A stretch of DNA of 64,000 bases from sequence record MZ311864.1; one strand, 5' to 3'. The translations under genes were made by a program, and so were the position numbers. The DNA is from Escherichia phage vB_EcoM_LNA4. Of the stretch, positions 2,756-19,279 are shown piece after piece; position 1 is the stretch's first letter, and each line of letters begins with the position of its first letter. The notes under the pieces were generated by a model that worked only from the letters and a program-made list of their open reading frames with translations, ran no database searches and was not told where the DNA came from.

Positions 2756-4249
2756 GTGGCTGCTCAATATGGATTAAACGACTACGGCTTTGCGATCCCA
2801 TCCCTTGATGATCTAATCGCAGATACAAAGCAGTCACTAATCCGAACTTTCGGTGAGAACTTCAACACACAGTCAAACACTATTGTTGATAAGCTTACCA
2901 CAATTTTGAATGAAAGGGAGTACCAGTTAATCCTTCTGGCTGCGGCTGTGTATTCTGCACAGACCCTTGCAGGTGCTGAAGGTATTTACCTGGATGAACT
3001 GCTTGGTCGTCGTGGTATTTATCGTCGTGGGAAAACAAGAGGCTCCGGTACGGTACAGATGGTTGTAAACAACACTGTGCCATACAACATGATCTACAGT
3101 GCTGCAACATATAGCATCGACAGTGGCAACTTCGTACTTAACCAAGACACCCCGGTAGCTGGTAATATCCTTGCACAGCAAATCCTGAACCCGGACTGGG
3201 TGCTTGGTAACTACACCTTCCAGATGATGAACCAGAATGATGGTACAACTAAGACAATGGCCCTGACCCTGAGCAACAAAACGCCTAACAGCGCTCAGAT
3301 GAATGCCTTTATGTCTTCCATCAAAGACTTTATCATCCAGAACACCACGCAGTTAAACGAAGACAGAATCTTCATTGATTCTGCCAACGGTGCTCTGTAT
3401 ATTGGTTATGATGCCAACAAAAAAATGATCGGTCTTAACAGCCGTGTTGATTTTCGTTCCTCCCCAGTTATCGGGCAGAGAACGATCACGATGGATGTTA
3501 TTGCCGCTGAAGCTGGTGAGATCTCTCGTGAAGCAAACACCGTAACAAACATCAGCCCAACCCCAAGTGGCTTTATCAGTATGACGAACATGGCTGCATT
3601 TAACGATGGGTCAGACGTTGAAACCGATACAGACTACAAGGTCCGTGCTGCTAACAGTACAGCCGCTGGCGCTGCTGCTACCCGTCCTGCTGTCATCTCT
3701 GCTGTTCTTAACGTAGAGGGTGTCAGCAAGGTCCGTGTGTTCTCTAACAACACCGGATCAACGGATCAGTATGGTGTGCCTGCATATAAGTTCGAAACTG
3801 TTGTGTATGGTGGTTCAACTGAGGATATCAGTCAAGCGCTTTATAACACAATTGCATTATCCAACGCAACCTATGGTAATGTCTTCTATGATATCACCAC
3901 AGAGGATGATCAGACAGAACGAATTTTCCACAGTAAGGCTCAGGCCCGTGAACTCGCACTTCGCGTTCGTTACAAAGGGAAACTTCTCTCAGTCACAGAG
4001 CAAAACACAATCAAAGATGCTTTGAAGGCAGTTGTTGATCCTTTAAACATCGCAGACACCCTGTACAACATTCAGTTGGTATCTGCGGTAGGTTCTTCAA
4101 TCTCTCCTGGTCGATTCACTCAACTGTTTGTTGATGTAAAGAATGTTGGTCAACCAGACAGTTCCTACACAAACAGCGATGTGGTGGCCGGGATGACACA
4201 AGTCTTCGCACTGGATACAGACGACATCACCTTCCAGCAAATCATCTAA
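2756..4249 (+). CDS. baseplate J-like protein
   Basis: 497-aa ORF with AGGAGG RBS; N-terminal region resembles baseplate J family; sits among tail genes. Confidence 0.5.
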   Translation: MAAQYGLNDYGFAIPSLDDLIADTKQSLIRTFGENFNTQSNTIVDKLTTILNEREYQLILLAAAVYSAQTLAGAEGIYLDELLGRRGIYRRGKTRGSGTVQMVVNNTVPYNMIYSAATYSIDSGNFVLNQDTPVAGNILAQQILNPDWVLGNYTFQMMNQNDGTTKTMALTLSNKTPNSAQMNAFMSSIKDFIIQNTTQLNEDRIFIDSANGALYIGYDANKKMIGLNSRVDFRSSPVIGQRTITMDVIAAEAGEISREANTVTNISPTPSGFISMTNMAAFNDGSDVETDTDYKVRAANSTAAGAAATRPAVISAVLNVEGVSKVRVFSNNTGSTDQYGVPAYKFETVVYGGSTEDISQALYNTIALSNATYGNVFYDITTEDDQTERIFHSKAQARELALRVRYKGKLLSVTEQNTIKDALKAVVDPLNIADTLYNIQLVSAVGSSISPGRFTQLFVDVKNVGQPDSSYTNSDVVAGMTQVFALDTDDITFQQII

Positions 4250-4259
4250 CGAGGTAAGC

Positions 4260-4892
4260 ATGGCAGATTATCTAAAGGATGTCAACCACATCCATACTCT
4301 GCCAGATTTCGTACAGGGTGGTATTGATTACCTCCCTGGCGATTTTCTGAAAGAGAAAGAAAACCTTGTCAAGTTCATGACGGTATATCTCGAAAGACTT
4401 AAAGCAATTGACGAAATGTGGGTCAATCTGTCTGAAGGTAGATTACTGAAGAATGCAACTGGTGTCAACCTCGATGAGATTGGCAAGCAGGTGGGGATTG
4501 AGCGTAACGGTCTTAGCGATATGAACTATCGTGCGATCATCATCATCCTCCTTGCGAGTGCTGCGAAGCACGGTACAAGACCAGAGGTTATTGACACACT
4601 TGACCAACTGTTCGGGACAGGAAATTTCACCACGTATAAGGGTGACAACTACCGTTTCGACATTAACATTTCAAAGACGTGTTTTGAATTGGAGACAGCC
4701 CTCCAGGAAATCCAAGACATGTTGCCTATGCCTACCCACCTGAGACTCACAGAGTCCAGCGGTACGGCTTTTGGTTTCTCAGGCGATAAGTATGCACTTG
4801 GGTTTGGTTCAGTCCACTCAGGTGGTCGTACAGGTGAAGGTGGCCTTGCACACCTGACATATACGTCTGATGAAGAGAATACCTTGATTTAA
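4260..4892 (+). CDS. baseplate/tail protein
   Basis: 210-aa ORF tightly packed after baseplate J-like gene. Confidence 0.45.
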   Translation: MADYLKDVNHIHTLPDFVQGGIDYLPGDFLKEKENLVKFMTVYLERLKAIDEMWVNLSEGRLLKNATGVNLDEIGKQVGIERNGLSDMNYRAIIIILLASAAKHGTRPEVIDTLDQLFGTGNFTTYKGDNYRFDINISKTCFELETALQEIQDMLPMPTHLRLTESSGTAFGFSGDKYALGFGSVHSGGRTGEGGLAHLTYTSDEENTLI

Positions 4893-4903
4893 GGGAGATA
4901 GCA

Positions 4904-6016
4904 ATGGCAGCGCCAACAGTACCTATTGAAATTTGGGCCTATGGGAACATTGTCCTCCCTAATACCCACGAGTTAAACAAATCCCGTCCTATTGATGACC
5001 TTTGGAACAAAGGTTGGGACATGGGTGAAAAACCTTCTTGCGAAGAGTTCAACTATGTGCTAAACATGGTTACGGCATGGGCCAAGTACATCACTGGTGA
5101 ACAGATCCCCGCTCTTGATAGCCGATTCCTACGTGTTACTCAGAACTTGGCTGATGTACCCAACAAGGCCACTGCTCGTACAAACCTCGATGTGTGGAGC
5201 AAGGGAGAGTCCGACACGCGTTATGTGAATGTGTCTGGTGACACCATGACCGGGAACCTTTCTGTTCCTCGTTTAGATTTGCAGGCATCTTCTTCTGACT
5301 TTGCCTACATCACCACAACTAACCCAGCATCTGACTGGACATACTTTGATTTTGTTCTTGGTGATAATCCAGGGACGGCAGGGTCTTCCGGTGTTGATAC
5401 AATGCGTTTCCGCTTCACACCTTCTGGTGGCAGCATCTTTAACATGATGGAGCTGAACGCTATCAGCGCCACTGCTGCCCTGTGTCGTGTAACAGGTAAC
5501 ATCATCGCGAGCGGAAGTATTCAGGGTTCTTCAATGACAGCAACCTCTGCAACTTTCACGAACGGTACAGTAAGCAACACCTGGACGGTAAACACCCTCC
5601 AGTCAACAACAACCCGTGCGACCAACGTTGTGGCTACAAACAACGTATCCACCGGGACACTGAACGTAAGCTCAACAACCACAACTGCTAACCTTGTTGT
5701 CCAGAACAACAGTGCAACGGTTGGTGGTCGTCACGTTGTCCGTGCTGTGAACGGTAACACTGCTGATGGTAACGGTAACGTAACAATCTCCCTGCCTCCG
5801 CAAGGTGTTCAGGATGTTCGTCTGGGTTCAGAGATCTCTACGAACCGTTATTCTCTTGGTGGTGAATCCTTTGTGTATCGTGCGCCTGGGGGATGTGTTG
5901 TGACAGGTTTCAACATCTGGTCAAAATCTGGTAACAACGATGAATTCCGCGATATGTATTCTCGCCCAATCCAGAAGTATATCAACGGCGGTTGGTACAC
6001 AATCGGACAGCTCTAA
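4904..6016 (+). CDS. tail fibre protein
   Basis: 370 aa, Thr/Asn/Val-rich repetitive fibre-like sequence. Confidence 0.5.
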   Translation: MAAPTVPIEIWAYGNIVLPNTHELNKSRPIDDLWNKGWDMGEKPSCEEFNYVLNMVTAWAKYITGEQIPALDSRFLRVTQNLADVPNKATARTNLDVWSKGESDTRYVNVSGDTMTGNLSVPRLDLQASSSDFAYITTTNPASDWTYFDFVLGDNPGTAGSSGVDTMRFRFTPSGGSIFNMMELNAISATAALCRVTGNIIASGSIQGSSMTATSATFTNGTVSNTWTVNTLQSTTTRATNVVATNNVSTGTLNVSSTTTTANLVVQNNSATVGGRHVVRAVNGNTADGNGNVTISLPPQGVQDVRLGSEISTNRYSLGGESFVYRAPGGCVVTGFNIWSKSGNNDEFRDMYSRPIQKYINGGWYTIGQL

Positions 6017-9485: not shown

Positions 9486-11189
9486 ATGTTTCCTATTCCA
9501 AGCCTGTTCCTGCTAATGGCGGGTGGTGGTACAACACCCCTACCTCCTGGCGGGGTGAAAAAGATCGCTTTCTCCAGAGAACAAACAACTGGTGTAAAAA
9601 GGTCTATGGCTATTCTTCTAACAGACGGAAGACTATACACCCAAGGTGATAACGCGTGGGGTGAATGTGCAGACGGAACAACAAGCCCGTTCTACGACCA
9701 CTGGAAACTCGCTGCAAGTAATGTAGCAGATGTTTTCGGTGTTGGGAAGGCTTTTGTAGTAAAATATAATAATGGTGGCTGGCAGTATGCGGGGGACCAA
9801 GGACAATTTACAGGTGTCACCTCTAACATGATGGCGTGGACAAGTTTCCCATCCTCAATCACAGGGACTGTGAACCTTGCAAACCTCTCCAGTGTTATTG
9901 GTGGGGGTGGTAACACGTTGTGGTTGATGAACAATGGAACGCTGTATGGTAGCGGGTCCAATGCGAATGGGTGCCTTGGGTCAGGAAACAGTAACTCAAT
10001 CTCTATCCCAAGAACCATCAGCACCTCTTGTGTCAGGGCATACGGTCTACAGGCCTGTACTACATACCTCAACAACGTCGGTGTTCCTCGTGTCTGCGGT
10101 TCTCCATACGGGATCAATGGCTCGTTTGTTGCTATTATGAGTTATGCAAACGTAACGTTCCCAGGTGCCACAGGAACAATCTACGCAAAAGAGTGGATGT
10201 GTAACGAATCAAACACCATCGCCATTGCCTCCACCGGGGCATCAGACACAGATCACTATCTGTATACTCGTGGTATCACAACCAGTAATGGTGCATACGA
10301 GAAAGTTGCCGGGTTTGGGCCTTTCACAACCTTCCGTGTGATCGAGGGCGGTCAGTCAAGATTCTTTATCGCTGATGATGTTTTATATGCTCTTGGTGAT
10401 TCACAGCGTACCCTTGGGCTTGGAGACACCACAACAGCGGTAACTGTGCCGACTGTTATCCCTGTGCCTACCGGGGCAGATTGGGACCTTAGCAAGCTGA
10501 CTTACGTGGCTGACATGAAAGGCGATAACCTGTCACAAGGTGGGACTATCGGGCACTGGATAGTTTATGATGGGAACCTATTCTACACTGGGAGCGCAAA
10601 AGGATTCTTCGGGACCACAACCTCTGTCGGTAAGTTCACCAACGTTCCAGAGAACTCTTTCGAGGGTATCCGTGCCGACTCTATCACAACAGGATCAATT
10701 GGCGTGGCGATTGTTGGTACTACGAAACAGCTTACGTGGTCTATTGATCCACCGGGGGCTGAAATCTATGACCTACAGTTTAGCTCAAGTCATCCAGAGT
10801 TTGCAACAATTGATGCGAATGGGCTTATGACCTTCGTTGCTGAGGGGGGTTTTGACATCACCATGACGGCGAAGACAGGGACAAGCGCAACAACCTTGAC
10901 AGATACTTCAGGGGGTTATGCTTCAACACTTGGAATGGCTACTGATAGCCTTTCTGCGATGACTGTCGGTGAGACAAAACAGCTTGTTTATACGGTAACA
11001 CCAGCGGGTGTTGAGAACCTTGACGGGTACTCTATCTCCTTCTCCAGTGAAGACCCAACGGTTGCGACAGTAAGCTCTACCGGGCTGATCACAGCAGTTG
11101 CTGATGGTGGGACTCGTATCCATGCGACGGCAGCGGTCCAGACCGTAACAGCAGACGATAGCTCTTATCTGTCAGTGAACGCACCATAA
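9486..11189 (+). CDS. tail fibre/adhesin with RCC1-like repeats and Ig-like (Big_2-like) domains
   Basis: 567 aa; repeated GxxGxLG propeller-like motifs then two Ig-like segments. Confidence 0.5.
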   Translation: MFPIPSLFLLMAGGGTTPLPPGGVKKIAFSREQTTGVKRSMAILLTDGRLYTQGDNAWGECADGTTSPFYDHWKLAASNVADVFGVGKAFVVKYNNGGWQYAGDQGQFTGVTSNMMAWTSFPSSITGTVNLANLSSVIGGGGNTLWLMNNGTLYGSGSNANGCLGSGNSNSISIPRTISTSCVRAYGLQACTTYLNNVGVPRVCGSPYGINGSFVAIMSYANVTFPGATGTIYAKEWMCNESNTIAIASTGASDTDHYLYTRGITTSNGAYEKVAGFGPFTTFRVIEGGQSRFFIADDVLYALGDSQRTLGLGDTTTAVTVPTVIPVPTGADWDLSKLTYVADMKGDNLSQGGTIGHWIVYDGNLFYTGSAKGFFGTTTSVGKFTNVPENSFEGIRADSITTGSIGVAIVGTTKQLTWSIDPPGAEIYDLQFSSSHPEFATIDANGLMTFVAEGGFDITMTAKTGTSATTLTDTSGGYASTLGMATDSLSAMTVGETKQLVYTVTPAGVENLDGYSISFSSEDPTVATVSSTGLITAVADGGTRIHATAAVQTVTADDSSYLSVNAP

Positions 11190-11190
11190 C

Positions 11191-11224
11191 AAAAAGGCTC
11201 CCAATCGGGAGCCTTTCTTTTTAT
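11191..11224. terminator. bidirectional rho-independent terminator at strand switch
   Basis: AAAAAGGCTCCCaatcGGGAGCCTTTCTTTTT; convergent genes on both sides. Confidence 0.7.
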
Positions 11225-11652
11225 ACAGCGTTCTTTGCTTCGCCGTGTTGCCTGTGCCACTCTTCATGATGAATAGGGCATAGCCACATAACCTCTAAAG
11301 GTTTATCATAATCACAATGATGAGCCTGTACATCTTCACTTCCGCAAACCCCACAGGGCTGTTTTAATAGCTTGCCGTCACGGATTGCGTTACCTGTTTT
11401 TATATGCACAGATCTCTTCTTCGGATTCTTCTCAATATACTTCCGTTTTGCACGAGTCGCAGCCTCTTTCCCGATACCTTTAACGTATCGCTCTTTCATT
11501 GCTTTACGCTCAGGATTTTGGTCCCTTACCCGATCACGCTCTCTGAGACAAACCCTACACGAAGCGGTTAAGCCATCTCTCGATGCTGCCCTTTTTCCAA
11601 ACTCTTGCGGGGATTTAAGCTCCCCGCAATTGCTACAATGCTTATAAGTCAT
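11221..11652 (-). CDS. HNH endonuclease
   Basis: Paired CxxC motifs and His-rich HNH-like core (CPIHHEEWH). Confidence 0.55.
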   Translation of the reverse strand: MTYKHCSNCGELKSPQEFGKRAASRDGLTASCRVCLRERDRVRDQNPERKAMKERYVKGIGKEAATRAKRKYIEKNPKKRSVHIKTGNAIRDGKLLKQPCGVCGSEDVQAHHCDYDKPLEVMWLCPIHHEEWHRQHGEAKNAV

Positions 11653-11657
11653 TGATT

Positions 11658-12794
11658 CTAAAAGGGAATATCGTCATCGAAGTCCATTGGGGGAGTGTCG
11701 TCGAAGTCAACAGGCGGTGCCTGAACTGTACCGCTCAGAGGCTCCTGTACGGGCTGTGACGGCTTCTGACCTTCTTCCTGTGCAGTTGCACTAGCATAGG
11801 CATAGAACGTCGCTGCAAGGGCATACGCTTCGCGTGTTGCCTTCTCAAGTTCATCTGCGTCGATAGTCTTGCCTTTAACAGCAATTGTCGTTACAGCAAA
11901 CTTAACCGCATTGCCAACTGTCTGGCCTACATCCTTACCTTCAACCTCTGACAGTTCTTTAATCAGCTTGGTTGTGACATCATGTACCACCTTACCAGCA
12001 GCCTCTACATCACCTTTAAAGCCGGAAAGCTTCAGGTTAACGAGGGCATTCATGGCATGACCAGCAGACACACCGACAGGATCATAAGGTGTACGCTTAC
12101 CTTTTCCCCCTGCTCCACCACCCTGACCAGCAGGGCCATAGGCCTTGAAGCTGTTGATGATGTTACCAGTTCCCAGATCAACGAATGCCGCCAGACGACC
12201 ACCTACAGATACCTCTGCCAGTTGCTCATCAGAGAGAACTACACGACCCTCACCTTGTTTCTCATCGTTCACAACTGCAACGTTGCCTTCGATAGACAGG
12301 ATTTCGCCGTAGATCTTAGCACCCTTTCCACCACCAACCTGTGCAGGAGCACTTGACTGCGGAGGTGCGGCATCTGCCGGGGCATCAACCAGGATCTTGA
12401 TGTCCTTCTTCTTACCCTGATAAGAGGTATTGGTTTTGCCGTCTTTCTCATAGGTCTGTTTCTGGACCGGGTAGATGGAGATCTCCGCACCCGGTAACAG
12501 GTCTTTATAGCTACCGTCAGCCTGCTTCACCTGGAACTGGTTTTCGTATTTCAGGTTCTTAACTTCACCTTCACCGAAAGACACAAACTCATCAACGCCA
12601 CCTGCGGTAAGCAGGATAGAGTAACGGTGAGTTGAGGAAATAGTTTTCCCCGCATTAGGACCCTTGTTGATGTGGGTAACCTTGGCAGAACCATCAGCGT
12701 TGATACGCTTGATGAATACACGCTTGATCACGCCTTTAGCTTTCAGTGCAACGGAATCATCAGCCGGGTTCACTACTTCAGTAATTACGCTCAT
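11658..12794 (-). CDS. single-stranded DNA-binding protein (SSB-like)
   Basis: Gly-rich linker and C-terminal tip MDFDDDIPF identical in style to the E. coli SSB tail; start set at ATG after AAGGAG. Confidence 0.55.
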   Translation of the reverse strand: MSVITEVVNPADDSVALKAKGVIKRVFIKRINADGSAKVTHINKGPNAGKTISSTHRYSILLTAGGVDEFVSFGEGEVKNLKYENQFQVKQADGSYKDLLPGAEISIYPVQKQTYEKDGKTNTSYQGKKKDIKILVDAPADAAPPQSSAPAQVGGGKGAKIYGEILSIEGNVAVVNDEKQGEGRVVLSDEQLAEVSVGGRLAAFVDLGTGNIINSFKAYGPAGQGGGAGGKGKRTPYDPVGVSAGHAMNALVNLKLSGFKGDVEAAGKVVHDVTTKLIKELSEVEGKDVGQTVGNAVKFAVTTIAVKGKTIDADELEKATREAYALAATFYAYASATAQEEGQKPSQPVQEPLSGTVQAPPVDFDDTPPMDFDDDIPF

Positions 12795-12807
12795 TCTCTC
12801 TCCTTTA

Positions 12808-13155
12808 TTACTTAGTTTCTTCAGTCTGGGTTTCAGCATTCACACCCAGAAGTCTATCAACAATCAGGTCTTCAACCTGGCTCAACAGGTTCATCGCGAA
12901 GGACGATGCACCGTTCAGTTGCAGCAGGTTGTTACGATGACCACGAACCCATGCTAAAGCCTCTTCAACAGTGCCGTACTGACCACTGTTGATAACTTTT
13001 AGCATTTCATCACGCATACGATCAGACCCGATGAATTGGCTCATCTGAGCGCCAGCGCTTGAAAGGAATACAACAGTTCCAAACTGAGCCTCATCGAGGT
13101 CAAGGAAGTGTAGTTGTTCAGGTTGTTTGTCGATAGGGGTTACTTCTTCAGTCAT
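12808..13155 (-). CDS. hypothetical protein
   Basis: ORF with GGAGG RBS; start at ATG rather than adjacent TTG. Confidence 0.45.
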   Translation of the reverse strand: MTEEVTPIDKQPEQLHFLDLDEAQFGTVVFLSSAGAQMSQFIGSDRMRDEMLKVINSGQYGTVEEALAWVRGHRNNLLQLNGASSFAMNLLSQVEDLIVDRLLGVNAETQTEETK

Positions 13156-13217: not shown

Positions 13218-13424
13218 TTAGCGATTTTTCTTCAGCTTTTCAATGATGCTCGAAACACCAGCCACCCCAAAAACACCAAGGATGAAGAGCACGATCACAC
13301 CAACAATAAAGGCAATACCGAAATAGAGCGGTAGAAGAACAAGCCACCAAGACCAGGTGATCACACCACACAGTTTTAGTGTGATGAATACCAGCGCTAA
13401 TAGCGCCATAAAACCAATTTTCAT
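13218..13424 (-). CDS. small membrane protein
   Basis: 68 aa, two hydrophobic helices. Confidence 0.5.
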   Translation of the reverse strand: MKIGFMALLALVFITLKLCGVITWSWWLVLLPLYFGIAFIVGVIVLFILGVFGVAGVSSIIEKLKKNR

Positions 13425-13439
13425 TTTATCTCCCGTAGG

Positions 13440-13706
13440 TTATGAGTGCATCCACGATGGTATGGCTGAAGAGCCACCCATGAATACAGTGCCTGAAGCA
13501 GCAAATGTGTCCAGTGTGCTATCGAGGCCGTTATCAAAATCAACAGCCTGTGGCTTATGCGTCGTCGCTGGAAGCCCACAACATGAGCATTCAAGTGTTG
13601 ATACATAGCCCTCAACCACAGCGTCTGTCTTATGTCCGTGAGGACACCAGAACGATGTCATCTGTTTCAATCGCAACTCCCACTGAAAGAAGAGCTTGAA
13701 TCGCAA
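13440..13706 (-). CDS. hypothetical Cys-containing protein
   Basis: 88-aa ORF overlapping the next ORF in another frame. Confidence 0.3.
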   Translation of the reverse strand: MRFKLFFQWELRLKQMTSFWCPHGHKTDAVVEGYVSTLECSCCGLPATTHKPQAVDFDNGLDSTLDTFAASGTVFMGGSSAIPSWMHS

Positions 13707-14173
13707 GACGAATACGAGTCGTGACTACTTGATGAATGACTCGGTGTATGATGGGAATACGTGTCGCTGATCGTTGTTGTGTTGATGAACACAGCATCAT
13801 CATTTCGACGACGATAACTATCATCATCAGAAACAACACGACTCCGTGGTGGTGCCGGAGGAGCAGGTGGTCGGCTCTTAGACGCAGTTACTGCCCTCTT
13901 CAACTCTTCTGCCTTCAATGGCTTTGCATTGGGTCCAGGAGATGTCTTCGCAGGTGATCGTTCCACAGCAATAGCTTTGGTAACGATCTTCTGTTCTGCA
14001 ACAGTATTCACGGCTTTTGTTGCAATCTCCGAGATCTCTTCCTTTGTCAGGGGAGGGATCTTTGTGACCGTTGTGGTTGTTTGCGAAACAAACGTTGTGT
14101 TGCCGTTACCGACAGTTACAACCGTGTTGTCGGAAGAAAACAGACTCGCCAACCATTTGAAAAATTTACGCAT
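13667..14173 (-). CDS. hypothetical protein with low-complexity C-terminus
   Basis: 168-aa ORF, N-terminal hydrophobic segment; 3' part overlaps 13440..13706. Confidence 0.35.
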   Translation of the reverse strand: MRKFFKWLASLFSSDNTVVTVGNGNTTFVSQTTTTVTKIPPLTKEEISEIATKAVNTVAEQKIVTKAIAVERSPAKTSPGPNAKPLKAEELKRAVTASKSRPPAPPAPPRSRVVSDDDSYRRRNDDAVFINTTTISDTYSHHTPSHSSSSHDSYSSCDSSSSFSGSCD

Positions 14174-14444
14174 AAAATTCCTCCAGTACCTTCCAGATTG
14201 TGTTCAGTTCCCCGCCAGACATCAGGCTCCAGATCACCATGTCCTGATAACCCTTTCGGCAAACATCCGTCTGACGGAATGCTTTGTGGAAGCTCGTTGG
14301 ATTATCCCAATCAACCGGGAGATCGTCAACGTTCTTTTTGAAATAAGAGAGAACGAGTTTCTCTTCCATGTTTGGATTTTCACCCAAACTCGCTTCGTAC
14401 ATCTCTACAAACTTCTGCCCGGTACGTTCTGACTTCATAACCAT
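14166..14444 (-). CDS. hypothetical protein
   Basis: 92-aa ORF in operon context. Confidence 0.45.
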   Translation of the reverse strand: MVMKSERTGQKFVEMYEASLGENPNMEEKLVLSYFKKNVDDLPVDWDNPTSFHKAFRQTDVCRKGYQDMVIWSLMSGGELNTIWKVLEEFYA

Positions 14445-14806
14445 TCGCCAGTCTCCATTTGTTTTGGTGTCAGGGTTTTAACCTGGTTGTCGTCAACTGG
14501 TGCGAACCCAACCACAGGTTTGAAGCAACGCTCTTTCTGTGCATCGAACACATAGAACGCCTCTACCGCCGCTGGCTTGGTACACGTTGTCCAGTGACGC
14601 TTATACATCCCGTACCCGTCAAGGTATGTTGAAAGGTAGTTAAATAGCGTACCGCCACCACCAACCATAAGTGCAATAGCGATCACATAGGTCTTCCATG
14701 AAGATCTGAAAGAAATAACCAGCGCCCAGATCAACATCATTACATACATCATAACCGCTGGAACCCAGTTATTGTGCATGGTAAGCCATTCCCAAAATCC
14801 AATCAT
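14435..14806 (-). CDS. membrane protein
   Basis: 123 aa with hydrophobic segments. Confidence 0.5.
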   Translation of the reverse strand: MIGFWEWLTMHNNWVPAVMMYVMMLIWALVISFRSSWKTYVIAIALMVGGGGTLFNYLSTYLDGYGMYKRHWTTCTKPAAVEAFYVFDAQKERCFKPVVGFAPVDDNQVKTLTPKQMETGEWL

Positions 14807-14809
14807 TCC

Positions 14810-15379
14810 TTACCCTCCAAAAGATGAGCGACTGCTCACAGAGCTACCAAAACCACCACGAGAAGATGTGGTGCTACGAGAAACCGTTGTACGAGGAGAC
14901 TGCACTGTCGGCTTTGCAGCAGAGCTTGTCACCTTGAACGTTTGACCAGGACGTGCATTGTAGCTACGGAACTTATTGTCCATATACTGCCCTGAACGAT
15001 CCTGATACAGCGGTGCTGAATGATAACCGGAGTTCATGCTGTTACCCATCATGTACCCCATCATCAACGGCATCCATGAAGAACCGCTGTCTGAACTGCT
15101 TGGGTTGTGTCGGCACTGATCACCGAACTCAGCGTAGCAGTCAGAGTAAGTAGCATAGCGTGGCGCTGTTTCATTTGCAACCTTTTCTGCTTCCTGTCTT
15201 GCTGCACGACACTGATCTGGTTTGTGCGTATCTGCAATACACTCATCAACATTTTTGTACATCTTCATGTCGATGTCTGCTTGCTCACAACCTGCAACTG
15301 TGATTGCTACCGCAAAAGGCAGGGCATAGCGCCCCACCTTCCGGAAAGCATTCTTATTGATATGCTTTGTTCTTTTCAC
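14810..15379 (-). CDS. YgiB-like (DUF1190-like) lipoprotein
   Basis: Signal peptide with lipobox VAGC; conserved-looking PRYATYSDCYAEFGDQC and WMPLMMGYMMG motifs; Ser/Thr-rich tail. Confidence 0.6.
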   Translation of the reverse strand: MKRTKHINKNAFRKVGRYALPFAVAITVAGCEQADIDMKMYKNVDECIADTHKPDQCRAARQEAEKVANETAPRYATYSDCYAEFGDQCRHNPSSSDSGSSWMPLMMGYMMGNSMNSGYHSAPLYQDRSGQYMDNKFRSYNARPGQTFKVTSSAAKPTVQSPRTTVSRSTTSSRGGFGSSVSSRSSFGG

Positions 15380-15393
15380 TTATCCACCTTTAC

Positions 15394-15573
15394 CTAAACT
15401 AACGAGGGCATCACTGCAACCAGTGCGCCTGCGACCATCCCGATAAACATTCCGCCACCAACTAACCAACCAAAATCCCCTGTTCCAAACTTGAGGCCAC
15501 CGCAAAATGCTGTAAGCACAGAACAGACAGTGATTAAAAGAAATACACTTATGAATACCAGTACCTGTTTCAT
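15394..15573 (-). CDS. small membrane protein (59 aa, below ORF-track cutoff)
   Basis: GAGGA RBS then ATG; hydrophobic MKQVLVFISVFLLITVCSVL... Confidence 0.4.
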   Translation of the reverse strand: MKQVLVFISVFLLITVCSVLTAFCGGLKFGTGDFGWLVGGGMFIGMVAGALVAVMPSLV

Positions 15574-16277
15574 TTTGATTCCTCTTTACGCCACTTGTAA
15601 GCACCATACACAGAGTTTAGCAGGAAAGTGACCCACATTGCAAGGTTTGCTGCTCCAGCACCTTCGTGGTGTAACGTCAGGTTAACCCACATACCTACCG
15701 CAACGATATTCACAATGATCCACACATACCACTGTTCAGCATAACGAGTCATCATTAAGTATGTTGCCAGTACAGACAGGATAGCTGTCGCTGCATCTGG
15801 ACCTGGAAGTGAGCCTTTCAGCAGGGAGATCCCTTCGGCATACAAACCAATCACAATCAGTGTACTAATACCCACCAACCAACGTTGTTTTGTGGTCAGA
15901 TAGTTCTTGATGACATCTGCACGTTCACCGTCAGCAGAAACGTTCAGCTTACGCGCCCAGATAATACCACCAATGACCTGCATAGGGGTGAATAGGACGG
16001 TGTACATGATCGTTTCGCCATACAGTTTATATGTGAATGACACATACGCATACAGCACTGTCGCGATGAAGCCCCAATAGTAGCTGGAAAGTTTACCTTT
16101 CGCAACCAAAATTGCACCGACGATACCTGTCACGGAAGAGATAAACTCCACCATAGTACCACCAGTGACGATAGAAACTGTCGCGATGGATGCGGAACAG
16201 ATCAGAAGCCAGAGGTATTCGAGTTTTGTCCAACCATAGAAGTCTGTCCAGGTTGTTTTTACGTATAGATTCATCAT
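15570..16277 (-). CDS. pnuC: nicotinamide riboside/NMN transporter PnuC
   Basis: 235 aa multi-pass membrane protein with PnuC-like Trp/Gly-rich helices; AGGAG RBS. Confidence 0.75.
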   Translation of the reverse strand: MMNLYVKTTWTDFYGWTKLEYLWLLICSASIATVSIVTGGTMVEFISSVTGIVGAILVAKGKLSSYYWGFIATVLYAYVSFTYKLYGETIMYTVLFTPMQVIGGIIWARKLNVSADGERADVIKNYLTTKQRWLVGISTLIVIGLYAEGISLLKGSLPGPDAATAILSVLATYLMMTRYAEQWYVWIIVNIVAVGMWVNLTLHHEGAGAANLAMWVTFLLNSVYGAYKWRKEESK

Positions 16278-16529: not shown

Positions 16530-16810
16530 AGAATGCTCTCCAGCCTTTTCAGAAGCACTTCGATCTTTGGATTCGCTGCACCGTTACCGTACAACTTATA
16601 CTTAAGATCCAGTACAGCGTCAAGCAATTCTGGTGCTGCTGCGATCAGTTTTGCATTTGCACGGGCCTCTTCGTAATCCGTCCCGTAACACTTAGCAACC
16701 TTCACATCATGCAGAATACCAGTCCCGACTTCTGTGCCGTCATTAGTCCAAGGACCAGGGGAATATTTAACCATTTTGGCTCCTTTGTTTAGCCCATTCA
16801 ATTGCCGCAA
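16526..16810 (-). CDS. hypothetical protein
   Basis: 94-aa ORF; start may be internal. Confidence 0.4.
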   Translation of the reverse strand: MRQLNGLNKGAKMVKYSPGPWTNDGTEVGTGILHDVKVAKCYGTDYEEARANAKLIAAAPELLDAVLDLKYKLYGNGAANPKIEVLLKRLESIL

Positions 16811-17105
16811 GTATCACATCGCAATGACATGCTACTTCTTTGTTCGGCTGTTTACAAAAGCATACAAGGTCTTTACCGTCCAAGTCAAGCAGATCTTGAA
16901 TAGTTATTTTGCCTGCGCGGATCTGTTGCCATAACCAGACACGATATCTTTCAATTGTGGCCCCACGAGGCTCATCCTTCGACAACTTATATGGGTTAGC
17001 GAATTTAGACTGCTTCAGACCAAGGTGGGGCATTGCTCGCCCCATGTACTCAGCATTCTCAGGTATCACTTTACCGATGTGGTAGAAGTTGAGCACCTTA
17101 GCCAT
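16767..17105 (-). CDS. DUF4326-like protein (CxC...CHC motif)
   Basis: 112 aa with CFCKQ...CHCDV motif. Confidence 0.45.
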   Translation of the reverse strand: MAKVLNFYHIGKVIPENAEYMGRAMPHLGLKQSKFANPYKLSKDEPRGATIERYRVWLWQQIRAGKITIQDLLDLDGKDLVCFCKQPNKEVACHCDVILAAIEWAKQRSQNG

Positions 17106-17883: not shown

Positions 17884-18957
17884 TTATTCTCCTTTGATAT
17901 TCAGCAAGTTACGGACAGCTTCTTCGGCCTTTTGAATACGATCTTCGTAATCACTGCCGGAGATAACCACCACCTTGCTTGTATCGTAAGATGCTCTGAT
18001 CATTGTGTCAAGCAAAGAATGTGTTTCTTTACGCTTTTCTGGAGTATCCTGCAAGCGAAGAGGATCAGCAACCCACGGAACCTCTGGGGTGAGGAACAAG
18101 AACAAGTCATAGAAATTGTAGCCCTCTTCACGGCTCAGTGTCCGGAACAGCAGATCTGAGTAATCGATCTTGTCTGCACAAACACCAGAGAAGTGTGTGA
18201 TCAGATTTGTGGTGTCGGAGAACATTACCCCACGGTCACCCCAACCTGCCACCTCCATCTCCTTCAGGCGGTGCTCCATTGCAATACGCAGGTAATCCTC
18301 ACGGGTCATTGCAAACTCGCTTGAATGATACTCACGCTCACAGATCAGCCTTCCGATCTCAGGAATCCAGGCAGCACCGAACGTGTGTGCCAAGTGTTCG
18401 GTCATGGTCGTTTTTCCTGTGCTCTCTACACCAATGATAGCCACCTTCTTAATGAAGCGCTTACGTGCAGGCCACGACAAGTGGTAGAAATTCTTGTACG
18501 GGTCATTACGGATCATTGTGGCTGAGACAGGAACAGCTTTACGTTCTGCGTCGATAACAACATGCTTCGCTTCAGGGAAGAACTCACTGAAGTAAGACTC
18601 GTACTCCGGCTCAGAAGAGAAAGCAAAGTCGTACTTAACGAAAGGTTGTTTTTCACGGATCAGTTTTGCATAAGCAGCACCGCCTTCAGGGTATCCGGGG
18701 ATATTCGACTCATCAACGTAGTCAACCTTCACGTTATCCAGACCCTCATCGGCAATAACATCCAGCAGGTCACGATAGCGGTCAGCAAGGCCCAACTTTG
18801 GACGAATCCACTCTGGTTGAGCGTCAACAAATTTCTGGTCATACGACAGGAACAGATACAGGCAACTTACCTGCGAGGCCGCCTGGCGAATGAACTCAAT
18901 ATGCCCGTTGGTCAGCGGTGCAAATTTTCCGAAGATAAGGCCGCGAGTCATAGTCAT
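17884..18957 (-). CDS. nadR: NadR-like bifunctional NMN adenylyltransferase / ribosylnicotinamide kinase (no HTH domain)
   Basis: GKFAPLTNGHIEFI nucleotidyltransferase motif and C-terminal Walker A IIGVESTGKTT; start at ATG after AAGGA RBS. Confidence 0.75.
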   Translation of the reverse strand: MTMTRGLIFGKFAPLTNGHIEFIRQAASQVSCLYLFLSYDQKFVDAQPEWIRPKLGLADRYRDLLDVIADEGLDNVKVDYVDESNIPGYPEGGAAYAKLIREKQPFVKYDFAFSSEPEYESYFSEFFPEAKHVVIDAERKAVPVSATMIRNDPYKNFYHLSWPARKRFIKKVAIIGVESTGKTTMTEHLAHTFGAAWIPEIGRLICEREYHSSEFAMTREDYLRIAMEHRLKEMEVAGWGDRGVMFSDTTNLITHFSGVCADKIDYSDLLFRTLSREEGYNFYDLFLFLTPEVPWVADPLRLQDTPEKRKETHSLLDTMIRASYDTSKVVVISGSDYEDRIQKAEEAVRNLLNIKGE

Positions 18958-18958
18958 A

Positions 18959-19279
18959 TTATTGATCCTTCTGGCATTTGTAGACTTGTGACACACGGGT
19001 CACAGACTTTTTGGTTGGGTTGATAGATGACCCCTGATACCAGCGAGACTCTTCGCTCAGAACATTCCCCACCTGAGCATCCTTTTTAGGGATCACTGTG
19101 TCGATGCAGGTCTCACCCATACTATCCTTCATATGGGACCAAATGCTCAGAGAAAAACGCTCGATCTTGTTGCACACCTCGACCTTGCACATAGGTTCGG
19201 TCTGGAAATCATCATCTTCTTCCGCATGGGCGGCTCCAACAAAAGCCATAGCCAGCAGAGCAATCGTTAATTTTTTCAT
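18959..19279 (-). CDS. secreted/periplasmic protein
   Basis: Signal peptide MKKLTIALLAMAFVGAAHA; Cys-containing mature part. Confidence 0.5.
   Translation of the reverse strand: MKKLTIALLAMAFVGAAHAEEDDDFQTEPMCKVEVCNKIERFSLSIWSHMKDSMGETCIDTVIPKKDAQVGNVLSEESRWYQGSSINPTKKSVTRVSQVYKCQKDQ

Follow-up and report, generated by a model that had tools for sequence, protein, structure and literature searches.

Escherichia phage vB_EcoM_LNA4 (MZ311864.1) carries a gene whose product, judged by its sequence, is a phage counterpart of the bacterial envelope lipoprotein YgiB, a member of the DUF1190 family. The gene was analysed in a window of 64,000 nucleotides, the whole stretch of DNA considered here. 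The genome is that of a Seunavirus-like myophage, with DNA about 90% identical to that of Cronobacter phage GAP31. We tentatively propose that the protein carries out YgiB-like envelope maintenance by way of the host ligase, a reading to which we assign a probability of roughly 0.4.

DUF1190 annotation in phages is not new. An earlier report described a ‘YgiB-like lipoprotein’ in phage Moon and gave its role as unknown (Edwards et al., 2015; PMC4319498), and the RefSeq label ‘DUF1190 domain-containing protein’ is already on the GAP31, 4MG, KNP2 and Mydo orthologues. There appears to be no earlier analysis of the distribution, selection and ligase link of the phage genes. New here are the single-gene island, the conservation across genera, the presence in at least six phage lineages and the ligase adjacency in 49 of 49 bacterial loci.

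Identity of the gene product

14810..15379, minus strand: DUF1190/YgiB-type lipoprotein gene (189 aa, GTG start, PF06693 match)

The GTG start is preceded by the Shine-Dalgarno sequence AAAGGTGG. In a Pfam profile scan the product matched PF06693 (DUF1190) with E = 7.9e-39 and 134 bits, against a cut-off of 22. The alignment spans profile positions 3-159 of 159, which is the whole domain. NCBIfam NF008655 (2e-42) and phrog_3739 (9e-68) were matched as well, in agreement with the DUF1190/YgiB-like identity proposed in the first-pass annotation. The product is 99.5% identical to GAP31_241 at the amino acid level. Its NF008655 score of 145.5 bits misses the equivalog cut-off of 223 bits, which indicates a divergent family member and not an orthologue-grade YgiB copy.

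The gene had also been described as a phage copy of a host lipoprotein. The family assignment stands, but the copy is not a recent one. The protein shares about 45% identity with enterobacterial YgiB, compared with 83-96% between E. coli YgiB and the YgiBs of other host genera.

E. coli YgiB (b3037, UPF0441/DUF1190) is a full-length homologue. Both proteins have an MKRTK N-terminus, a lipobox followed by Glu at +2, four cysteines, a WMPLMxGYMMG-type motif, RGGFG and a C-terminal GG. The phage protein is shorter by 34 residues and has no Q/A-rich linker. Its gene, unlike ygiB, is encoded by a lytic phage and has no adjacent ygiC or tolC. E. coli YjfM (b4185) belongs to the same Pfam family and shares the lipobox, four-Cys and GGxG...GG layout. 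However, it is only 26% identical to the phage protein, compared with 45% for YgiB, has a long extra N-terminal extension and is encoded in a PspA/DUF350 operon (yjfIJKLMC). This places the phage protein on the YgiB-type branch.

Architecture and conserved motifs

15287..15379, minus strand: signal peptide II with lipobox V-A-G-C (residues 1-31; predicted lipidated Cys31; Glu at +2)
15113..15241, minus strand: acidic domain carrying the conserved cysteines C47-x9-C57 ... C81-x7-C89 (all four invariant, alignments A1 and A2)
15041..15079, minus strand: Met/Gly-rich hydrophobic motif WMPLMMGYMMGNS (residues 101-113; alignment conservation)
14813..14863, minus strand: basic Ser/Thr-rich tail with RGGFG motif and terminal R-S-S-F-G-G-COOH (residues 173-189)

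In the translated N-terminus, MKRTKHINKNAFRKVGRYALPFAVAITVAG|C, a basic n-region is followed by a 12-residue h-region and then by the lipobox V-A-G-C. The VAGC lipobox named in the first-pass annotation can thus be read from the translation, with Cys31 at its end in a signal of the signal-peptidase-II type. A1 and A2 show no variation at M1, R3 and C31, and the lipobox is present in 156 of 160 homologues, most with Glu at +2. This signal suggests that the product should be exported and lipid-anchored at Cys31. Host YgiB, a predicted outer-membrane lipoprotein, likewise has Glu at +2, and has been detected in OMV proteomes (tolA mutant).

No conserved element of the family is missing from the phage protein, which contains WMPLMMGYMMG, SRGGFG and the terminal RSSFGG. 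P104, M106, G108 and M110 do not vary in the Met/Gly motif, and Y109 and G112 hardly do; in the RGGFG region R174, G176, F177 and G178 are invariant. A C-terminal GG is found in 117 of 120 YgiBs, 26 of 40 phage-like hits and 41 of 49 bacterial loci. The tail has a median net charge of +7. It follows a short hydrophobic segment of GxxxG type.

A bitopic topology, with the Met/Gly motif as a transmembrane (TM) helix and the basic tail in the cytoplasm, was considered and rejected. No segment reaches a Kyte-Doolittle value of 1.6, and AF2 models the Met/Gly motif as a β-hairpin. The charge dipole leaves this topology as a minor possibility. Structure comparison found no solved relative of the fold, so the structure gives no functional clue.

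AF2 gave a pLDDT of about 85 over the acidic domain, and exactly four cysteines beyond the lipidated one are present in 153 of 157 homologues. These cysteines and the Met-rich motif could serve as ligands for Cu(I) or a different soft metal, or as oxidant scavengers, so that the protein would act as a periplasmic buffer protecting the envelope. The invariant Cys-x9-Cys and Cys-x7-Cys pairs and the MxxMMxxMM-like motif fit such a role, and a comparative-genomics paper termed DUF1190 a ‘metal-chelating lipoprotein’. Loss of ygiB sensitises cells to H2O2 and slightly to copper (the copper result from a preprint, data not shown). However, four periplasmic cysteines are more likely to form two structural disulfides. 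In addition, the highly divergent homologue in Acinetobacter phage ZZ1 has none of the four, while its Met/Gly motif, RGGFG and terminal GG are retained. We consider metal or redox buffering highly unlikely.

Gene neighbourhood

17884..18996, minus strand: NadR-type NMN adenylyltransferase/ribosylnicotinamide kinase (TIGR01526, 1.2e-53; NF005988, 2.4e-49)
15570..16277, minus strand: PnuC nicotinamide riboside transporter (PF04973, 3.2e-37; TIGR01528, 3.5e-31; phrog_1880)
15394..15573, minus strand: p59, small membrane protein with 2 TM segments (TM scan; phrog_22580)
14435..14806, minus strand: p123, membrane protein, 1-2 TM segments, two Cys in the C-terminal domain (TM scan; phrog_7941)
14166..14444, minus strand: p92, soluble DUF7238 protein (PF23885, 1.1e-15; no TM)
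13667..14173, minus strand: p168, Ser/Pro-rich protein, no TM (phrog_17348, 3e-63)
13218..13424, minus strand: p68, small membrane protein with 2 TM segments (TM scan; phrog_1374, 2.9e-22; weak Tmemb_185A match)

The interval first delimited, 13218-15573, is bounded exactly by the end of the 68-aa ORF and the start of the 59-aa ORF. All genes here are on the minus strand and are transcribed in the order pnuC, p59, DUF1190, p123. The DUF1190 gene was initially placed upstream of pnuC; in transcription it is downstream, with one small gene, p59, between them. A run of at least four small membrane proteins had also been described. The count is three, besides the lipoprotein: a Kyte-Doolittle scan of the interval found TM segments in p59, p123 and p68 only, and none in p92, p168 and p88. 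A promoter scan gave nothing above shuffled expectation. The NadR-type enzyme is the NAD salvage partner of PnuC. The adjacency of the DUF1190 gene to NAD salvage is specific to this phage group and may be coincidental.

Homologues of p59 have been found in Vequintavirinae only. We rejected p59 as a single DUF350/YjfL repeat, which would have formed a YjfL-YjfM-like pair with the lipoprotein; BLASTP and hhalign found p59 unrelated to DUF350/YjfL. A module of DUF1190 with p59 or p123 was likewise rejected, since each is found without DUF1190 in related phages. In Erwinia phage pEp_SNUABM_01, p59 abuts the p123 homologue with no DUF1190 gene between them. In PVP-SE1, pnuC directly abuts p123, and both p59 and the DUF1190 gene are absent. 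On the basis of these two genomes, the DUF1190 gene is an optional single-gene accessory island in its phage subfamily.

The adjacency of the lipoprotein gene to p123, whose product has a periplasmic-looking C-terminal domain, could indicate a lysis function. The lipoprotein would be an Rz1-like outer-membrane spanin and p123 the inner-membrane spanin. This reading is largely refuted already, and we find it hardly credible. A separate Rz/Rz1 pair has been reported in the subfamily, next to the terminase genes (PMC7344957). In PVP-SE1, p123 occurs without the lipoprotein and carries an annotation of two TM segments, whereas an inner-membrane spanin has a single N-terminal one. In gene order the lipoprotein comes before p123, while an outer-membrane spanin gene is embedded in, overlaps or follows that of its partner, and the gene sits in a replication/metabolism block. 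Furthermore, the lipoprotein is homologous to a chromosomal, non-prophage bacterial protein.

Distribution and selection among phages

We compared the locus with that of phage KB57, which belongs to a different genus. The DUF1190 proteins are 97.9% identical (dN 0.009, dS 0.37, dN/dS 0.025), against 47% for the flanking p59, 61% for p123 and 82% for PnuC, for which dS is at least 1.1 or saturated. A block of 88-98% DNA identity coincides with the DUF1190 ORF. The gene is under very strong purifying selection, and these comparisons indicate that it has evidently been exchanged between phage genera. Protein identity is 97-99% across phages isolated on Cronobacter, Klebsiella, Escherichia and Proteus.

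Large lytic phages of at least six lineages carry DUF1190 genes. We found 119 phage records, from Seunavirus/Mydovirus, Certrevirus, Moonvirus, Agricanvirus, the RaK2/GAP32/CBB-type giants and an Ochrobactrum jumbo phage, and the genomic context of the gene differs in each of these groups. A further 42 records are from Aeromonas phages. Citrobacter phage Moon, like the window phage, is a lytic myophage; its gp148 is 39-47% identical to the protein studied here. However, Moon is T4-like, and its gene lies in an unrelated context near tRNA genes. A single-protein genome scan, which relies on exact peptide patterns and supports no inference on a donor or close bacterial relative, matched DUF1190 copies of 26-37% identity, mostly alphaproteobacterial.

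The gene is thus optional yet the most tightly conserved of its neighbourhood, has evidently moved between genera, and was picked up by at least six lineages. Together, conservation, transfer and repeated acquisition suggest strong selection for the gene, and a phenotype should be findable.

Link to the YgiC/YjfC ligase

In bacteria, a homologue of the YgiC/YjfC-type ATP-grasp ligase adjoins the DUF1190 gene in all 49 loci examined; tolC-ygiB-ygiC and yjfIJKLMC are the E. coli examples. YgiC/YjfC has been reported to ligate spermidine to peptide carboxylates, and the comparative-genomics paper placed DUF1190 in PspA/polyamine envelope-stress operons.

Phages differ in this respect. Ochrobactrum phage vB_OspM_OC and Aeromonas phage phiAS4 carry lipoprotein and ligase pairs, and Acinetobacter phage ZZ1 is a weak case; Acinetobacter phages probably carry both genes. 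The ligase of the Aeromonas and Ochrobactrum phages is glutathionylspermidine-synthase-like and encoded 0.5-1.2 kb from DUF1190. The DUF1190 proteins of phiAS4, 25, 44RR2.8t and vB_OspM_OC share the lipobox, Met/Gly motif and GGFG with the window phage protein, and that of phiAS4 also the terminal GG. Aeromonas phages additionally encode a Band-7 lipoprotein or a Kef-type K+ transporter; in phiAS4 the Band-7 lipoprotein is near the DUF1190-ligase pair. In contrast, no ligase homologue was found in the 64-kb window or related phage loci, nor in any Klebsiella, Cronobacter, Erwinia or Citrobacter phage record. Enterobacterial phages, this one included, carry the lipoprotein only.

To our knowledge, no natural substrate of the ligase has been described. 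The DUF1190 C-terminus, R-S-[F/Y/W/M]-G-G-COOH (RSSFGG in the phage), might be this missing physiological substrate. Aeromonas and Ochrobactrum phages would then supply the whole substrate-plus-ligase module, and the phage studied here an extra substrate lipoprotein for the host ligase to modify. The outcome would be a polyamine-tagged envelope lipoprotein that alters envelope properties during infection. The weak point is topology, as the ATP-dependent ligase is cytoplasmic and the lipoprotein exported. Modification would have to take place before export, or the basic tail (net charge about +7) would have to be kept in the cytoplasm. We regard the substrate proposal as unlikely.

The orphan state of the lipoprotein could also point to a decoy or dominant-negative role. 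The phage protein would compete with YgiB/YjfM for the ligase or for envelope partners, and so disable a host envelope-stress or abortive response. All of its interaction-type motifs, RSSFGG among them, are intact, although it shares only about 45% identity with YgiB and lacks the host Q/A-rich linker. In E. coli, YgiB overexpression perturbs the envelope and leaves 10-fold fewer β-lactam persisters. However, the lipoprotein and ligase pairs of Aeromonas and Ochrobactrum phages suggest that a working module is supplied and not jammed, and no defence role is known for YgiBC. Such interference seems distinctly unlikely to us.

Host YgiB and the proposed function

Published work on the host protein provides the main pointer to function. 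YgiB is Cpx-regulated and accumulates in a tsp mutant, and its loss causes sensitivity to H2O2 and unbuffered pH. Loss of ygiBC together with yjfMC aggravates the growth defect of a tolC mutant. These host phenotypes point to envelope-stress protection. They lend support to ‘envelope remodelling’, as the first-pass annotation had suggested, in the broad sense.

A narrower proposal made there, superinfection exclusion or receptor masking, finds no support in the present analysis. The lipoprotein would bind a conserved outer-membrane component, blocking adsorption or DNA entry of later phages or shielding progeny from debris. TolC, a known phage receptor (PMC11762307), is the obvious candidate because ygiB adjoins tolC in the host. 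That a lytic phage encodes a lipoprotein here, amid a cluster of small membrane proteins, fits this idea. Llp of T5 and the Cor lipoproteins are established exclusion factors acting on FhuA. They resemble the protein described here as phage-encoded, envelope-acting lipoproteins of lytic or temperate coliphages. However, there is no detectable sequence or profile relationship. Llp and Cor are much smaller, phage- and receptor-specific, and without a bacterial housekeeping homologue or ligase partner, whereas the mature phage protein has about 158 aa and is homologous to a housekeeping protein.

Further evidence argues against exclusion. The PHROG scan of the product gave unknown-function families only (phrog_3739 and phrog_13808), and PADLOC found no defence-system match among ten proteins of the block. 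The 97-99% identity holds across four host genera and despite differing tail fibres, which suggests that the host target is conserved and is not a receptor that varies between strains. The universal family partner is a cytoplasmic ligase, carried by some phages too, which a pure receptor blocker would not need. We know of no reported contact between YgiB and TolC. Deletion of ygiBC leaves TolC localisation, folding and activity unaffected. Taken together, an exclusion role appears rather improbable.

Envelope maintenance is our preferred reading. The phage protein would perform the same envelope-homeostasis job as host YgiB and would depend on host YgiC/YjfC. From gene orientation alone, its gene would be expressed with the early/middle replication and NAD-salvage block. 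The protein may stabilise the envelope and membrane energetics over a long lytic cycle, a need that would arise once the host cannot induce its own Cpx-regulated ygiB. Acting like YgiB is a pointer, not a mechanism. The identity of about 45% and the score below the equivalog cut-off suggest that the protein may have diverged in function, and an extra YgiB-like copy might equally well work against the host protein as add to it.

A recent review of TolC (2025) counts the function of the YgiBC/YjfMC module among open questions. Phage genetics could give a first handle on this envelope-polyamine module, since DUF1190 is tied to the peptide-spermidine ligase in bacteria and both are encoded by some phages. 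Many jumbo and rV5-like phages are therapy candidates against Klebsiella and Cronobacter, and the function proposed here would add envelope maintenance or manipulation to their auxiliary genes.

The DUF1190 protein and its family

The ORF at 14810-15379 (minus strand) has a GTG start preceded by AAAGGTGG, and its product is 189 residues long. The protein matches the Pfam DUF1190 model along its full length (E 7.9e-39; score 134 bits, cut-off 22). It also matches NCBIfam NF008655 (2e-42), at 145 bits, below the equivalog cut-off of 223 bits, and phrog_3739, a PHROG without functional annotation. The N-terminus, MKRTKHINKNAFRKVGRYALPFAVAITVAG followed by CEQ, is a lipoprotein signal of the canonical type with the lipobox VAGC. 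The first-pass annotation had described a DUF1190/YgiB-like lipoprotein with this lipobox, and the profile search bears it out.

The window protein was aligned with its phage homologues, E. coli YgiB and YjfM, and at least 40 further relatives. The family is defined by an N-terminal M-K-R, then the lipobox cysteine, usually with Glu at +2; an acidic domain with four invariant cysteines (C-x9-C ... C-x7-C); a Met/Gly-rich hydrophobic motif, WMPLMMGYMMG; and a C-terminal part with an RGGFG motif, then a basic, Ser/Thr-rich tail with a final Gly-Gly. The window protein contains the full set. Among 150 members, the median net charge is -7 in the cysteine domain and +7 in the tail. The terminal GG is present in 117 of 120 enterobacterial YgiBs, 26 of 40 phage-like matches and 41 of 49 other bacterial copies. 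GG-ending C-termini mostly read R-S-F-G-G; the window protein ends in RSSFGG. Its gene is near-certain to be a YgiB-type lipoprotein gene.

Orthologues in GAP31, 4MG, KNP2 and Mydo are labeled "DUF1190 domain-containing protein" in RefSeq, and several GenBank records use "putative lipoprotein". When the genome of the T4-like Citrobacter phage Moon was announced, the authors mentioned "a YgiB-like lipoprotein" and gave its role as unknown (Edwards et al., 2015; PMC4319498). The gene is real and was correctly identified; related phages already have annotated genes of this kind, and it does not represent a new type of system.

Gene neighborhood

The region shares ~90% DNA identity with Cronobacter phage vB_CsaM_GAP31 (Vequintavirinae, Seunavirus); its relatives among Enterobacter, Escherichia (4MG), Klebsiella (Mydovirus) and Salmonella phages are less similar. 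From ~11.2 kb to past 19 kb of the window, all genes are on the minus strand, the orientation of the DNA polymerase in GAP31. The end of this block that faces the tail genes is a bidirectional terminator-like hairpin (11193-11216). Features of the block include the following.

17884-18996, minus, NadR-type NMN adenylyltransferase/ribosylnicotinamide kinase, identity confirmed by profile match
16767-17105, minus, DUF4326 ORF, one of five small ORFs between pnuC and the NadR-type gene
15570-16277, minus, pnuC, identity confirmed by profile matches
15394-15573, minus, p59, small membrane protein
14810-15379, minus, DUF1190 lipoprotein
14435-14806, minus, p123, small membrane protein
13218-13424, minus, p68, small membrane protein

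The PnuC transporter and the NadR-type enzyme form an NAD-salvage pair. Transcription runs from pnuC through p59 and DUF1190 to p123, so the DUF1190 gene lies downstream of pnuC. Within 13218-15573, hydrophobic segments of transmembrane strength are found in p59, p123 and p68 only; p92 (DUF7238), p168 and p88 lack them. The first-pass annotation was therefore right in substance and slightly off in two details, having placed the lipoprotein gene upstream of pnuC among at least four small membrane proteins.

Other genes lie at the hairpin end. A 567-residue tail-associated protein (9486-11189, plus) contains RCC1-like repeats and two C-terminal Big_2 Ig-like domains, and its gene converges on the minus-strand block at the hairpin. 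A 393-residue protein (11658-12839, minus) matches phrog_4477, a PHROG without assigned function, and has no Pfam match. It ends in PPMDFDDDIPF; the same 11 residues form the C-terminal tip of E. coli SSB, the part that recruits SSB-interacting proteins. Elsewhere the protein does not resemble SSB. It is a candidate for a phage SSB or an SSB-tail mimic. Between it and the tail gene, a 143-residue ORF (11221-11652, minus) carries CxxC pairs and an HH...WH motif and by eye resembles an HNH/zinc-ribbon endonuclease; a Pfam search gave no match at E<=0.01. This slot is empty in GAP31, and the ORF may be a homing-endonuclease insertion.

Relation to host YgiB and distribution in phages

E. coli YgiB is 83-96% identical to YgiBs from other Enterobacteriaceae genera, whereas the window protein is ~45% identical to enterobacterial YgiBs and 26% to YjfM. 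A rough neighbor-joining tree unites the Vequintavirinae proteins with that of Moon in a clade whose sister group contains enterobacterial YgiB and the jumbo-phage copies. Judged by identity levels and tree position, the phage protein is YgiB-type, old and divergent, and was not captured recently from the present host.

A tblastn search found the gene in 119 phage records, and a second search, started from a protein of an Aeromonas phage, added 42 more, all from Aeromonas phages. Nearly all carriers are large lytic myoviruses.

DUF1190 homologues in phage groups (tblastn, identity)
Seunavirus and Mydovirus, 95-99%
EspYZU-type Cronobacter phages, ~87%
Certrevirus (CR3-like), 47-48%
Moonvirus (T4-like), 39%
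Ochrobactrum jumbo phage, 33%
Erwinia Agricanvirus jumbo phages, 31%
Giant RaK2, K64-1, GAP32, CBB, BF group, 27-32%

Neighbors vary by lineage and include an HD phosphohydrolase, tRNA genes, the RNR small subunit and the head protease. Because the context differs in each lineage, adjacency to NAD-salvage genes is specific to the window's phage group.

Three records filed as phage (AGRM01000002.1, AFYI01000007.1 and OR851682.1) are either contigs of bacterial Salmonella or a 1.5-kb fragment that shares 94% identity with host ygiB-ygiC. Because of them, phage searches for DUF1190 and ligase genes give 'Salmonella' counts that are too high.

Evidence for exchange of a single gene

In Salmonella phage PVP-SE1, of the same genus, pnuC abuts the p123 homologue, and p59 and DUF1190 are both absent. 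In Erwinia phage pEp_SNUABM_01, p59 adjoins p123 and DUF1190 is absent. These gene orders indicate that DUF1190 is a single-gene insertion, and a module with p59 and p123 was rejected. A spanin role for the lipoprotein is essentially ruled out: PVP-SE1 has p123 without DUF1190, and the subfamily has its own Rz/Rz1 pair (PMC7344957).

The DUF1190 protein is 97.9% identical to that of Klebsiella phage KB57 (Mydovirus), with dN 0.009, dS 0.37 and dN/dS 0.025. The low dN/dS indicates strong purifying selection. Identity to KB57 is 47% for p59, 61% for p123, 59% for p68 and 82% for PnuC, and dS of these genes ranges from 1.1 to saturation. In a 60-nt sliding window, DNA identity is 88-98% in a block matching the ORF edges (14810-15379 against 3501-4070 of KB57 locus L008), and 57-60% upstream and 38-55% downstream. 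This sharp single-gene island is evidence of recent exchange of the DUF1190 gene alone. Since its dS is 3-4-fold below that of adjacent genes, we infer that the cassette was swapped between a Seunavirus-type phage and a Mydovirus after the genera diverged.

Association with a peptide-spermidine ligase

In E. coli, ygiC comes after ygiB and yjfC after yjfM, the latter pair in the operon yjfIJKLMC, which also codes for a PspA-family protein and a DUF350 membrane protein. YgiC and YjfC are currently named peptide-spermidine ligases in RefSeq; according to a 2025 review, neither their physiological substrate nor the function of YgiB is known. A YgiC/YjfC homologue lies directly beside the DUF1190 gene in all 49 bacterial loci retrieved (L012-L060, ~4000-5800 in each), which come from alpha- and gammaproteobacteria plus a few other bacteria. 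In 19 of the 49 there is an adjacent DUF350 gene as well.

YgiC-like genes occur in 144 phage-collection records, chiefly from Acinetobacter, Aeromonas and Pseudomonas phages; phages of Klebsiella, Cronobacter, Erwinia and Citrobacter are not among them. Several of the phages with a ligase have DUF1190 as well.

Ochrobactrum phage vB_OspM_OC (L061, 1481-3661), DUF1190 (9.6e-36), then an SprT-like gene, then the ligase
Aeromonas phage phiAS4 (L062, 130-3697), a Band-7/SPFH lipoprotein, a DUF1190 protein (8e-22) and the ligase within 3.6 kb
Acinetobacter phage ZZ1 (L063, 1601-3769), a weak DUF1190-like lipoprotein (E 0.003), then the ligase

The ZZ1 protein lacks the cysteines and keeps the Met/Gly motif, RGGFG and terminal GG. 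In Aeromonas phages LAh_6, LAh_8 and LAh_9, DUF1190 adjoins a Kef-type K+ transporter. These sets mirror the bacterial PspA/polyamine operons described by comparative genomics, which combine PspA/Band-7, a K+ channel, DUF350, DUF1190 and the ligase.

Superinfection exclusion or receptor masking, proposed in the first-pass annotation, would leave the universal ligase partner and the phages with a lipoprotein-ligase pair unexplained. A PHROG profile search and PADLOC found no similarity of the DUF1190 protein to known exclusion proteins, and we consider this role unlikely.

The conserved ...R-S-F-G-G-COOH lies beside a ligase that couples spermidine to the carboxylates of peptides, which raises the idea that DUF1190 is the natural substrate of the ligase, with phages supplying the whole module or the substrate alone. 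For comparison, the target of Gsp in glutathione is the glycine carboxylate, and RimK acts on ribosomal protein S6 at its C-terminus. Topology is an obvious obstacle, as the ATP-dependent ligase is cytoplasmic and the lipoprotein exported, and we regard the idea as rather doubtful. No ligase homologue is present in the 64-kb window or in its phage relatives. The DUF1190 of the window and of these relatives is therefore an orphan that could work only with host YgiC/YjfC.

Proposed role

A Citrobacter rodentium ygiB mutant has a prolonged lag phase in unbuffered simulated colonic fluid and is sensitive to H2O2, and the mutation is additive to htpX and yebE defects. YgiB increases 3- to 4-fold in a tail-specific-protease mutant and is present in vesicles of a tolA mutant, and its overexpression reduces beta-lactam persisters ~10-fold. 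A slight copper phenotype of the ygiB mutant was mentioned as data not shown, and in the comparative-genomic work DUF1190 is described as a metal-chelating lipoprotein. We consider it very unlikely that the phage protein has a metal or redox role. We also find it improbable that the protein acts as a decoy.

The growth defect of a tolC mutant on minimal glucose is worse when ygiBC and yjfMC are lost. A 2010 study by Dhamdhere and Zgurskaya is reported to link this defect to membrane stress and depletion of NAD+. In that case the location of DUF1190 beside phage NAD-salvage genes would be suggestive, but we give it no weight.

Our leading explanation, with a probability of roughly 40%, is that the phage-borne envelope lipoprotein is functional and used for what YgiB does, namely envelope protection or adjustment under stress together with a peptide-spermidine ligase. 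Shutoff of host transcription by a lytic phage would leave the host unable to induce ygiB via Cpx. A ygiB-type copy of the phage's own, in the putative early/middle block, would restore this capacity. The comparative evidence makes the phage DUF1190 gene a better-than-average target for experiments.
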